Source: an uncultured Treponema sp.
GTDB taxonomy: Bacteria; Spirochaetota; Spirochaetia; Treponematales; Breznakiellaceae
Direction: 5' to 3'
Length of the DNA: 64,000 bases
Assembly: GCA_964425215.1 (NCBI GenBank)
Contig: CAYRLW010000004.1
Coordinates: forward strand, 64,919-128,918
Positions 13,389 through 15,778 of this stretch are shown here, in pieces. Within the stretch, counting starts at the first letter, position 1. Every line of letters begins with the position of its first letter. The position numbers and the translations under genes are program-made. Under the pieces are notes generated by a model. The model searched no databases. It was not told the origin of the DNA and saw nothing but the letters and a program-made list of their open reading frames with translations.

Positions 13389-14537
13389 GTGCGCGCGATA
13401 GCGATTAAAAAAGGTATCCTTGTAGCCCTAGTCCTCGTCCTGGGTATTTCGTGGGTGGGGGCGGAAACCGTCAGCCCCTTTACCCTTCCTTCGGCCCGGC
13501 TGGGAGCCCTGGGGGGACGACACGGTACCCTGAGCGACGATTTTACCACCCTGTTCACCAATCCCGCGGGCTTCGTGGGGGTAAAGGAACAGTTGAGCGC
13601 CGCCCAAATTTCCGCCAGCGCCTACGGTCCCCTGTTTGATATCGCCGATGTGCTGATTAACTACCTCGGTTCCTCCGGTGCCCTGGATATTTCCAAAATA
13701 GTCGGACCCGGGGGCCTCGCCACCGGTTTAAGCCTGGGGGGACCGGTCTCCTTCGGGTGGGTAGGCCGGGGGCTAGGATTTGGCATTTTTAACAGAACCA
13801 CCATGGACGCCGTTACCCTCGGTTCAAATCTAAAAGCGGTCCCCTCGGAGGAACTGCTGATTACCGGAGGGTACGCGTTTCGAATTTTCGATAAGAACAG
13901 CCAGGTTATCGATGCGGGGTTTTTAGGCAAGGGCTTCTTCCGGGGCACCCTGGGACTTCAATCGTCCATATTTACGGTGACCGATTTATTCAGCGGCGAT
14001 CCGCTGGGTTCAAAACCCTTTACAACCGTCGCGGGGGTTGGTGTCGATCTGGGCGTAAAGTACGATTTAGCCAAAACCTTCGACGCCTCGTTGGTATGGC
14101 ACGACGCCTATTCTCCGGCCCTTAAATCGACCTATACCTCCACCGCCGATTTTATCGGCGGGAAGCAACCCCTTTCAAATTCCTACGTAATCGTTTCATC
14201 CGGTTTGGACGTAGGCGTTTCGTACACCCCCAAATACCCCCAGCTGGATCAGTACGTTTCCCGTTTATCCTTCTACCTGGATTATCGGGATATGCTGAAC
14301 CTCTTTGCCCTCATACCCCGAAACCCCATTTTGAACGTGGGCCTGGGCGTGGAGGCCGTGGTCCTGGACGCCCTTAGCCTTAGGGCGGGAATTACGGACG
14401 CCCTGCCTGCTTTGGGCTTTGGCATCGATTTTACCGTTATGCGCCTGGATTTTGCCATGCGGGGGGTCGAGCTGGGCCTGGATCCGGGGGTACAATCCAC
14501 CTATGCTATCGACTTGGACCTCCTTTTCCGGTACTAG
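13389..14537 (+). CDS. outer-membrane beta-barrel candidate, FadL/TodX-like (paralog)
   Basis: Signal peptide, LFTNPAGF motif (FadL family has an N-proximal NPA(G) motif), C-terminal ...LFRY. Confidence 0.4.
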   Translation: MRAIAIKKGILVALVLVLGISWVGAETVSPFTLPSARLGALGGRHGTLSDDFTTLFTNPAGFVGVKEQLSAAQISASAYGPLFDIADVLINYLGSSGALDISKIVGPGGLATGLSLGGPVSFGWVGRGLGFGIFNRTTMDAVTLGSNLKAVPSEELLITGGYAFRIFDKNSQVIDAGFLGKGFFRGTLGLQSSIFTVTDLFSGDPLGSKPFTTVAGVGVDLGVKYDLAKTFDASLVWHDAYSPALKSTYTSTADFIGGKQPLSNSYVIVSSGLDVGVSYTPKYPQLDQYVSRLSFYLDYRDMLNLFALIPRNPILNVGLGVEAVVLDALSLRAGITDALPALGFGIDFTVMRLDFAMRGVELGLDPGVQSTYAIDLDLLFRY

Positions 14538-14628
14538 GAATTGGGCAAACCTGTCCCACCGGTTCGTCTGAAGGCGGTTTATCGGGGTTTGAAAATCTAA
14601 AAATCCTCCGATTCAATCCCCAAAACCC

Positions 14629-14657
14629 TTGACCTTTCGGAGCTATTTCGTTATTGT
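14629..14657 (+). promoter_or_regulatory. sigma70-like promoter for tRNA-Lys
   Basis: TTGACC -17 nt- TATTGT, ending about 10 nt before the tRNA 5' end. Confidence 0.45.
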
Positions 14658-14667
14658 ACCTAACCAC

Positions 14668-14740
14668 GGGCCACTAGCTCAGACGGTAGAGCAACGCCCT
14701 TTTAAGGCGTGGGTCACTGGTTCGAATCCAGTGTGGCTCA
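14668..14740 (+). tRNA. tRNA-Lys (anticodon TTT)
   Basis: Cloverleaf: acceptor GGGCCAC/GTGGCTC, D-arm AGCTCAGACGGTAGAGC, anticodon stem ACGCC/GGCGT with loop CTTTTAA, T-arm CACTG-GTTCGAATC-CAGTG; discriminator A; CCA not encoded. Confidence 0.9.
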
Positions 14741-15179
14741 AAGAAAGAAAAGCCCCTCCGACAGGAGGGGCTTTTCTACGTCCATAAACGCACTGGATTC
14801 GAACGCCCTGAGCGCGCGCCAGGGGCGCGGAAGGCGGACAGGAAGTCCGCCGCCAGCGAAGGGCGCGGCCTGGAGGGCCGAGACAGGAAGTCGAGGGCCG
14901 GAAGGCGAATCCAGTGTGGCTCAAAGAAAGAAAAGCCCCTCCGACAGGAGGGGCTTTTTTACGTCCATAAACGCACTGGATTCGAACGCCCTGAGCGCGC
15001 GCCAGGGGCGCGGAAGGCGGACAGGAAGTCCGCCGCCAGCGAAGGGCGCGGCCTGGAGGGCCGAGACAGGAAGTCGAGGGCCGGAAGGCGAATCCAGTGT
15101 GGCTCAAAGAAAGAAAAGCCCCTCCGACAGGAGGGGCTTTTTTACGCTCCGAAAGGCACTGGATTCGAACGCCCTGAGC
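14724..15179 (+). repeat. about 2.5 tandem copies of a 183-bp unit starting inside the tRNA-Lys 3' end
   Basis: Units 14724-14906 and 14907-15089 differ by one base; partial third unit 15090-15179, more diverged. Each unit has 18 nt identical to the tRNA 3' end (cgaatccagtgtggctca) plus a terminator plus a 130-nt GC-rich structured segment. Confidence 0.85.
14750..14777 (+). terminator. Rho-independent terminator after tRNA-Lys, repeated in each tandem unit
   Basis: gcccctcc-gaca-ggaggggc 8-bp stem plus T-run; re-occurs at 14933.. and 15116.. Confidence 0.6.
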
Positions 15180-15205
15180 TCTTACACTATAAACGGGGGC
15201 AATCT

Positions 15206-15778
15206 ATGGCAAAGGCGGTATTGGAGCTCATGCGGGGGGATATTACCACTCTGGATGTGGACGCTATCGTGAACGCGGCGAATTCGACCCTGTTGGGCGG
15301 CGGCGGGGTGGATGGGGCGATTCACCGGGCGGCGGGGCCGGCGTTGCTGGCCGAGTGTCGTCGCAGAGCCGATGAGATCGGGGGGTGCCCTCCAGGGTGC
15401 GCGGTGATCACCGGCGCGGGCAGGCTCCCCTGTAAGCGGGTTATCCATACGGTGGGCCCGGTTTGGCACGGGGGCAAGCGGGGAGAAGCAGAGCTTTTAG
15501 CTTCCTGTTACCAGGAGAGCCTTCGGCTTGCCCAGAAGGAGGCCCTTCATTGTATAGCTTTTCCCAACATTAGCACGGGGGTGTACGGGTATCCAAAGGA
15601 ATTAGCCGCGCCGGTGGTCCTTCAGGCGGTCCGCTCTTTTCTTCCCCAGGCGAGCGAGGTACAACGGGTCATTTTTGTGTGCTTTGATGAGGAAAATTAC
15701 CGTATATACCGTTCCCTTTTGGATAATCCCGACCAAGGCTCCGAGGAGTTTATCGACCGACAGGTTCCTAGGGCTTAG
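15206..15778 (+). CDS. macro-domain protein (O-acetyl-ADP-ribose deacetylase, MacroD/YmdB-like)
   Basis: [34 protein letters not shown] and [15 protein letters not shown] macro-domain motifs. Confidence 0.8.

Follow-up and report, generated by a model that had tools for sequence, protein, structure and literature searches.

In the window, which is the whole 64,000-nt stretch analysed here, a tRNA-Lys(UUU) gene is followed on the same strand by a tandem array of 183-bp units (Table 1). ARAGORN and Rfam agree on the gene (69 bits, CCA not encoded), which had already been recognised as an intact tRNA-Lys(TTT) in the initial annotation made from the sequence. Tandem Repeats Finder delimited the array to positions 14723-15179, with a period of 183, 2.5 copies as assembled, 98% matches and a score of 877. 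The arrangement proposed in the initial annotation, two units differing by one base and a partial third, was recovered, but the repeat begins one base earlier than had been proposed. Units 1 (14723-14905) and 2 (14906-15088) differ at a single position (14776 C versus 14959 T), and the third copy comprises 91 nt (15089-15179) with five differences from unit 2, all in the linker. Each unit opens with the 18-nt 3' end of the tRNA, CGAATCCAGTGTGGCTCA (at 14723, 14906 and 15089), which is identical in all three copies, and carries the same terminator hairpin, GCCCCTCC-GACA-GGAGGGGC (at 14752, 14935 and 15118). These two features had been described correctly, as had a pair of CAGGAAG-looped hairpins (14833-14851 and 14875-14899) that recurs in unit 2, and the long open reading frames expected from a period divisible by three, which extend for 187 aa on the plus strand and 142 aa on the minus strand across the repeat. 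TTGACC-17-TATTGT is the sole promoter-like site within 14300-15400. The array ends 27 nt upstream of the start codon (15206) of a Macro-domain gene, whose protein product gave no result in a look-up.

Table 1. Coordinates of the tRNA-Lys gene and of the parts of the tandem array in the window.
Feature	Position	Strand	Remarks
Promoter-like site of the tRNA gene, TTGACC-17-TATTGT	14629-14657	+	Block kept in L002, unlike the rest of the upstream spacer
tRNA-Lys(UUU); last 18 nt, 14723-14740 (T-loop C56 to discriminator), are the segment copied in each unit	14668-14740	+	ARAGORN, Rfam
Spacer 1: tRNA trailer with intrinsic terminator (A-tract, hairpin 14752-14771, TTTTCT)	14741-14790	+	
Left arm, element 1: inverted complement of tRNA 14720-14733 (T-loop and T-stem 3' strand)	14791-14804	+	Perfect match; P1 5' strand in MFE fold and consensus
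Core, element 1: P2 enclosing two hairpins, including GGCGGA-CAGGAAG-TCCGCC at 14833-14851	14805-14905	+	
Core, element 1, 3' portion: GCGGCCUGGA (P3 5' strand, 14865-14874), P4 with CAGGAAG loop (14875-14899), GGAAGG		+	
Element 1, covariance-model match	14782-14925	+	89.5 bits
Right arm, element 1: direct copy of tRNA 3' end; first 11-13 nt are P1 3' strand, acceptor part is 3' tail	14906-14923	+	
Spacer 2: copy of trailer and terminator (hairpin 14935-14954, T-tract TTTTTT)	14924-14973	+	
Element 2: left arm 14974-14987, core 14988-15088, right arm 15089-15106	14974-15106	+	
Element 2, covariance-model match	14965-15108	+	89.5 bits
Spacer 3: third copy of trailer and terminator (hairpin 15118-15137, 5 linker substitutions)	15107-15156	+	
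Element 3, truncated: left arm 15157-15170 and initial 9 nt of core	15157-15179	+	

Besides the direct copy of the tRNA end, every unit contains CACTGGATTCGAAC (at 14791, 14974 and 15157), a perfect reverse complement (14/14) of the tRNA segment GTTCGAATCCAGTG. The initial annotation had taken this stretch for a direct match to the 5' half of the T-arm, a reading under which one of 13 letters fails to match and a 1-nt insertion has to be assumed. The element proper (~14788-14923, plus strand) has a minimum free energy (MFE) of -77.6 kcal/mol (z = -5.0), and its fold is the consensus structure of the family described below. The left and right arms pair as P1, a closing helix of 13 bp, the long stem P2 bears two hairpins, and a second domain, P3/P4, is capped by the CAGGAAG loop; the acceptor portion of the tRNA copy protrudes as an unpaired 3' tail. 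The units are accordingly tRNA-derived at their ends and structured in the middle, the anatomy that had been described from the sequence. The minus strand folds less stably (-69.0 kcal/mol). A minus-strand small RNA with anti-Shine-Dalgarno loops was also considered and is disfavoured by this weaker fold, by the GNRA loops of the family, which lie on the plus strand, and by the terminator of another locus (L008), which is functional on the plus strand only.

The orthologous tRNA-Lys locus was then compared among relatives, a comparison that the initial annotation had recommended. The best named match of a neighbouring protein belongs to Gracilinema caldarium (65% identity), which places the window among Treponemataceae. 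In L002 and L003, where the neighbouring protein is 93% identical, we found the same arrangement with 1.5 units of 188 bp, and the array stops within one base of the end point seen in the window. The promoter, tRNA, terminator hairpin, arms and core are conserved between the window and L002, while the spacer upstream of the promoter and the linkers flanking the terminator are essentially unalignable. The two cores are ~91% identical and display a compensatory exchange in P4 (GAC/GUC to CAC/GUG); judged from this alignment, the core is under purifying selection. In four more distant, syntenic, Gracilinema-like loci (L006, L104, L105 and L106), the tRNA and terminator are present and the element is absent. 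Short-read contigs of close relatives (L001, L004 and L005) stop within the tRNA.

A genome scan for two arms lying 85-115 nt apart retrieved a Treponema MAG (tRNA-Lys) and a Spirochaetaceae MAG, in which the element follows tRNA-Val(GAC) and rebuilds the 3' end of the Val tRNA; one further hit (L009) was a chance or unrelated match. The first four sequences have GCGGCCTGRA-N25-GGARGGCGAATCC in common, and metagenomes were scanned by this motif, which leaves the T-stem and acceptor unconstrained. The motif scan returned 94 loci, including seven chance matches in coding DNA (L020, L023, L031, L039, L066, L082 and L103). At every motif locus with an upstream tRNA, the bases past the motif are the 3' end of that tRNA, be it a Lys, Val, Ser (four anticodons), Arg, Tyr, Ala, Asn or Pro tRNA. 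A covariance model, R1, built on 55 distinct elements (alignment A1) identified ~130 copies of 50-140 bits over 647 kb, many of which had been missed by the pattern, and found only two full element copies in the window. By pattern scan and covariance model together, these ~130 copies are distributed over ~85 metagenome or MAG loci, the two with a taxonomic label being spirochaete MAGs. Without exception, they share the strand of a tRNA gene and follow immediately on its 3' side, in runs of one to three in tandem and often within tRNA clusters. At least 15 tRNA species bear elements of the family (79 distinct elements). Two size classes occur, ~140-147 nt (the window type) and ~160-166 nt. No copy was found in viral contigs. 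An Rfam scan, which the initial annotation had suggested for the unit, gave nothing beyond tRNA in the region, the whole window and 22 related loci; the weak matches to the rnk leader and isrJ were driven by the terminator and fell far below threshold. Rfam 15 has no entry for the family, and the literature that we searched contained no account of such elements in spirochaetes.

The arms of each element are matched to its own host tRNA. The right arm is identical to the 3' part of the host tRNA in 53 of the 79 distinct elements and departs from it by one mismatch in another 16. Over these elements, all with a recognisable upstream tRNA, the identity is 94% within the tRNA part versus 51% over the following 12 nt. 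The left arm, which mostly starts 48-87 nt past the tRNA end, always includes GGATTCGAA, the inverted T-loop, and usually complements the entire 3' strand of the T-stem; in five loci (L017, L087, L088, L027 and L057), it is complementary to the acceptor strand as well. Two loci (L028 and L049) bear on the origin of the left arm. The 5' strand of the T-stem reads GGAGG in their tRNAs and the left arm reads GCAGG, the exact complement of the 3' strand, so that the left arm is either an inverted copy of the 3' strand or has been selected to pair with it. The initial annotation had instead supposed a T-loop split by an insertion with a short cgaa duplication. That model fails across the family on the extra A of the inverted T-loop, which the left piece always has, on the left arms that run on into the complement of the acceptor 3' strand, and on L028 and L049. 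L013 and L035 resemble a direct insertion into tRNA-Ala and proved to be a rearranged copy without the 5' strand of P2. We also rejected a retrovirus-like primer-binding site, as no complement of CCA occurs and the trailers were copied from the gene and not from mature tRNA. In most copies, the acceptor portion of the right arm lacks a pairing partner, and in a few (L048, L054 and L089) it has decayed; the tRNA-like end may be a by-product of the origin of the element and not a functional feature.

The family consensus structure is supported by covariation. In the MAFFT alignment, 96.4% of cells are paired against 77.5% in shuffles, and none of 500 shuffles came up to this figure. Covariation scored 0.489, compared with 0.145 after shuffling and 0.06-0.13 for controls with slid partners. 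Covariation is strong in helices P2, P3 and P4, with 9-30 sequences showing double changes per pair in P2 and P4. The strands of P3 are invariant in A1, an invariance imposed by the search pattern; the model-based alignment also contains copies identified independently of that pattern, and there P3 shows exchanges of CG to GC. As for the strand, the longer size class has GNRA tetraloops on the plus strand, where internal loops with tandem G·A are also found, and both features point to this strand as the putative RNA, while the excess of G-U over A-C pairs (13 versus 7) is only suggestive of the same. The P4 loop conforms to CA(G/C)GAN. Family-wide, both the P4 loop and that of the second inner hairpin carry GGA, although about one-fifth of P4 loops are CACGAU, which has no GGA.

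The architecture of the window array is identical to that of RtT of Escherichia coli. In the tyrT/tyrV region of strain K-12, a 178-bp unit is repeated 3.1 times, and one additional unit lies between the two tRNA genes. The E. coli unit ends in 19 nt of the 3' end of tRNA-Tyr and includes the complementary GGGGAAGGAT; the units score 133-137 bits with the Rfam model of RtT (RF00391, gathering threshold 45 bits), in whose consensus exactly these arms pair as the closing helix, a stem bearing two hairpins lies inside it, and a 3' tail ending in CCA stays free. The annotated rttR RNA extends from just past tyrV to the CCA of the first copy, and E. coli genomes contain 1-14 places matching one RtT unit. 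The window array likewise lies directly 3' of its tRNA on the same strand as ~180-bp tandem units (183 bp, 2.5 copies), each ending in a direct copy of the upstream tRNA 3' end (18 nt) that pairs with an upstream inverted complement into a closing helix around a core with several hairpins. Both families occur as one to several units in tandem and in variable copy number (between strains in the case of RtT), and possess an inner long stem with two hairpins and another hairpin ahead of the right arm. In RtT, ~56 nt separate the tRNA from the left arm, comparable to the range found in most spirochaete copies. RtT even contains a spurious-looking ORF (tpr), like the long false frames of the window. 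Nevertheless, RF00391 matches nothing in window positions 14300-15500 at E up to 10, no hit over the full window attains its gathering score, and 16 spirochaete loci likewise gave no match at E up to 1. Conversely, R1 gives only ~8 bits on the E. coli units, though in register. The array therefore does not belong to RtT by covariance-model score, and we do not file it under RF00391, although by analogy it may well work like RtT. As each model fails to recognise the other family, a shared ancestry with RtT is unproven, and the design common to the two could be convergent.

We consider that the array is probably a divergent variant of the RtT-like tRNA-trailer element, and not an integrase scar, a coding sequence or a neutral satellite; on the same footing, the 183-bp unit is on balance best described as one such element plus a duplicated tRNA trailer and terminator. 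Among the alternatives listed in the initial annotation, an array of tRNA-derived small RNAs comes nearest to this reading; its observation is confirmed and its interpretation partly supported. In the working that we propose, the element would be a plus-strand RNA of ~135-145 nt with its ends paired in P1. The 3' strand of P1 is the direct copy of the host tRNA (T-loop position 56 to discriminator) and the 5' strand the matching inverted copy, and P1 closes a junction bearing P2, the long stem with two hairpins, and the P3/P4 domain. Such an RNA would be produced via read-through from the tRNA promoter, would be excised from the precursor by tRNA-processing enzymes, and would carry a tRNA-like tail at its 3' terminus, a feature that has been reported for RtT of E. 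coli. Unequal recombination between the repeated tRNA ends and trailers would shift the copy number (2.5 in the window, 1.5 in the nearest relatives, and 1-3 elsewhere), and the element would spread among the tRNA genes of one genome. A good intrinsic terminator stands between the tRNA and the element in the window and at the other tRNA-Lys loci, and no promoter-like site was found in the spacer of these loci; transcription there would thus have to rely on read-through. The release of the window element from the tRNA transcript is uncertain because the terminator separates the two. In the tRNA-Ser clusters, the element sits between tRNA genes, for which co-transcription is the simplest assumption. 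The most that we would commit to is, by analogy, an RtT-type RNA cut from the tRNA transcript, to which the tRNA-derived arms would give a stable closed fold.

There is nevertheless a real possibility that tRNA genes carry the family chiefly as a self-propagating passenger. In its strongest form, which we regard as possible but rather unlikely, the element is a selfish, non-autonomous mobile element aimed at tRNA 3' ends, its fold serving its own propagation and its arms being products of insertion; the intermediate, put forward just as tentatively, might be a small circular or single-stranded form that recombines with the tRNA 3' end. Several observations speak for such mobility. Occupancy at the same tRNA varies between contigs, as illustrated by the empty tRNA-Lys sites of the Gracilinema-like loci, and cores are more alike at different tRNAs within one contig (median similarity 78%) than at the same tRNA across contigs (57%). 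The elements behind Ser(UGA) and Ser(GCU) in L062 have near-identical cores but unrelated spacers, and their arms are fitted to their respective tRNAs. Behind different tRNA-Ser isoacceptors from different samples, L017 and L087 have an identical 10-nt spacer, of which L088 carries a one-base variant, and an identical 20-nt left arm, with one mismatch in L088; the 18-nt direct repeat stops exactly at the discriminator. L038 is a footprint, with the left arm fused to the remainder of the right arm and no core in between, and breakpoints are concentrated just past a left arm, where the arrays of the window, L002 and L062 come to an end. This pattern of similarity and occupancy fits spread within a genome or concerted evolution, together with unequal recombination between tRNA ends, and gene conversion between copies predicts the same similarities as transposition would. 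Moreover, no transposase, integrase or reverse transcriptase adjoins the copies examined, viral contigs gave no match, and GNRA loops and the strict co-orientation with tRNA suit a cellular RNA at least equally well. To our knowledge, no mechanism templates an inverted copy of the target. Nor does the family resemble miniature inverted-repeat transposable elements (MITEs), which have fixed inverted repeats, short target duplications and dispersed sites: here, the inverted repeats vary from one host tRNA to another, what is duplicated is a tRNA 3' end of 18 nt or more, and all copies lie behind a tRNA. The selfish reading is compatible with the RtT-like reading, as RtT itself could be such an element.

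The remaining explanations are less probable. A decoy RNA titrating a protein would draw on the eight GGA (against four TCC) in each 183-nt unit and on the GGA-bearing loops found family-wide, and CsrA is the obvious candidate for the protein, as the loops CAGGAAG, AUGGAU and CAGGAUG resemble the CsrB repeats, CAGGA(U/C/A)G. We consider this reading improbable: the match to rsmX is weak (17.4 bits) and lies far under the gathering score of 56, the CACGAU loops of P4 lack GGA, so that a model match and an invariant GGA in most loops, as expected of a CsrB/Rsm RNA, are both missing, and neither the tRNA-matched arms nor the location would be explained. Still less probable is an array of integrase attachment scars or a decayed CIME-like element, which supposes repeated integration at the T-loop of tRNA-Lys followed by deletion of the interior. 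Such integration classically leaves a tRNA 3' end directly repeated, and the duplicated stretch at times takes in part of the trailer (L008, 52 nt; L016, L047 and L060, 28 nt). However, the flanking gene order is conserved on both sides and is the same in relatives without the element, no island or integrase is present, and only ~165 nt without a conserved ORF separate the repeats, unlike in a tRNA-integrated island with an integrase, cargo and one tRNA target. The same conserved 100-nt core lies behind at least 15 tRNA species, to which the arms are matched, and a single attP site of an integrase is thereby ruled out; covariation in internal helices would also be unexpected for att arms. An equally slight chance is left to a neutral tandem satellite, an assembly artefact or a protein-coding repeat. 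The period divisible by three, with its long ORFs on both strands, and the relatives' short-read contigs that break at the repeat might suggest one or other of these, but the 188-bp unit of L002 and L003 loses the reading frame, the linkers bear indels, and the unit has no plus-strand ATG. The arrays of 1.5 units come from two independent assemblies, and neutrality is ruled out by the helix covariation; the core, with its compensatory changes, is under purifying selection, conserved while the linkers diverged past alignment.

Among known systems, small RNAs freed from tRNA spacers provide one point of comparison. The 3'ETS-leuZ-type RNAs are short, unstructured save for a terminator, and base-pair with small RNAs. 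The spirochaete element would resemble them in being a functional small RNA freed from a tRNA trailer by tRNA processing, a step that is part of our proposal; 3'ETS-leuZ, however, neither copies the tRNA 3' end nor forms tandem units. As in tRNA-integrated islands and CIMEs, an intact tRNA is followed in the array by a direct repeat of its 3' end, and tandem accretion is possible in both; the window unit differs in being just 183 bp, without integrase or cargo, and the spirochaete family differs in having the same core behind many tRNA species, adapted arms, and an inverted copy of the tRNA end. CsrB/RsmZ sponges likewise present several GGA in hairpin loops and close with a terminator, as the unit does, but they have no counterpart to the tRNA-derived closing helix, and, in the spirochaete family, the model match is insignificant and GGA is not invariant.

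RtT is the closest of the known systems. Its expression was shown by Bösl and Kersten (1991), as cited in PMC4986893, and homologues of RtT in Actinobacillus, beside Asn and Lys tRNA genes, are visible on Northern blots (PMC4986893). RtT is released from tRNA operon transcripts (PMC4986893; bioRxiv 10.1101/2024.07.17.603846), and copy changes have been reported in Erwinia (PMC4986893, PMC7542023, bioRxiv 10.1101/2024.07.17.603846). The function of RtT is termed unknown in PMC7542023; these secondary sources link RtT only to amino-acid starvation or the stringent response (PMC4986893, PMC7542023, bioRxiv 10.1101/2024.07.17.603846). The spirochaete element differs from RtT in several respects. 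Neither family is detectably similar to the other by sequence or covariance model; the tRNA copy begins at T-loop C56 and not at A58; no CCA is copied, because the tRNA genes concerned do not encode it, whereas RtT copies CCA; the P3/P4 domain with its CA(G/C)GAN loop is seen in the spirochaete family only; and an intrinsic terminator lies within each unit at the spirochaete Lys loci.

RtT has been an orphan curiosity since 1991, albeit one named in genome annotation. We now have a second family with the design of RtT, unrelated to it in sequence and located in a distant phylum, with ~130 copies, at least 15 tRNA species and rich covariation. It provides comparative data on why the tRNA 3' end is re-created and how the arms come to match the host tRNA, as well as on whether such elements have a regulatory role, assist processing or ride in tRNA operons as selfish passengers. 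There is a practical side as well, as the repeats break short-read assemblies at tRNA genes and generate long false ORFs. More speculatively, and with the odds against it, RtT and the spirochaete family might be two cases of a general, unrecognised class of small structured elements that propagate among tRNA genes by copying the host tRNA 3' end in direct and inverted orientation. If this is the case, the class would represent a mobile RNA or DNA element templated by tRNA 3' ends, which uses the recombination or tRNA-processing enzymes of the host and no transposase of its own. Regardless of whether such a class exists, the recurrence of the RtT design in a second family indicates that the design was selected or mechanistically generated, and is not an accident of the tyrT locus.

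The left arm of the element is fused to what remains of the right arm (GGGATTCGAAC followed by CCTCTCTCCG), with the core absent, at one inter-tRNA site in L038, a related locus. The full element occupies the same site in another related locus (L060), and the core-less junction looks like the footprint of a deletion or excision. A pair of palindromic hairpins lying ~100 nt apart was also noticed in L009, a Chloroflexia MAG locus with no tRNA nearby. The left and right arms of the window element, if joined, would yield exactly the first of these hairpins (TCACTGGATTCGAATCCAGTGA).

In four related loci (L012, L041, L044 and L055), only the portion of tRNA-Lys from the anticodon loop onward (cttttaaggcgtggg...) remains before the element, and unrelated sequence stands in place of the 5' part. 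Neither ARAGORN nor Rfam called a tRNA from these partial genes, and the four loci gave no match to a group I intron. An element that integrated in the anticodon loop could have displaced this 3' part of tRNA-Lys and left it behind.

Three loci (L037, L038 and L016) carry a long variant of the element, 225-230 nt in length, of which ~65 nt are an additional insertion within the AUGGAU-loop hairpin (CACCGCCGAATGGCGGTG... CCTTTCGGCAAACGGACCGAAGGG). The spacers between tRNA and element contain a recurring hairpin pair in many loci, GCTCAAAAATCC-NNN-GGATTTTTGAGC and then GGAGTTTTGCGAAGCAAAACTCC or variants, and these hairpins may be conserved terminators or form another small family of repeats. 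Two stretches of another locus, L088, weakly match the Treponema TD-2 RNA motif (RF03162), at 32 bits where the gathering score is 48.7. In L104 and L105, Gracilinema-like syntenic relatives lacking the element, the tRNA-Lys terminator is followed by a GC-rich and apparently structured leader of ~120 nt that precedes the Macro-domain gene, and no Rfam match to this leader reached the gathering score.

Two long ORFs run through the window repeat because its period is a multiple of 3, and gene callers would annotate false repeat proteins at the array. In L004, a compared locus, one caller has already placed a 49-aa gene across the tRNA region.

Positions of the features noted in and around the elements
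Feature	Locus	Position	Strand	Remark
Core-less arm junction	L038	~330-345	minus	between tRNA-Ser(CGA) and tRNA-Ser(GGA)
Palindromic hairpins	L009	838-972	minus	first TCACTGGATTCGAATCCAGTGA (perfect palindrome), second TCACTGGACACGAATCCAGTGA
Partial tRNA-Lys upstream of element	L012	~420-500
	L041	~1300-1380
	L044, L055
Long variant	L037	1325-1554
	L038	1515-1744
	L016	1155-1379
Spacer hairpin pair	L034, L043, L056, L068, L075, L085, L095
Weak TD-2 matches	L088	1665-1751, 1885-1968	minus	directly adjoin elements and tRNA genes
Leader	L104	2600-2730
	L105	2830-2945
ORFs through repeat	window	14679-15107	minus	142 aa
	window	14709-15272	plus	187 aa

Places matching one RtT unit, the E. coli repeat of the same architecture, numbered from 1 to 14 per genome in the E. 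coli genome collection, with a median of 3. Besides the inverted arm, the RtT unit of E. coli K-12 (L107, 1285800-1288000) also has CAAGGTTCGA, apparently a degenerate direct copy of the 5' half of the tRNA-Tyr T-arm.
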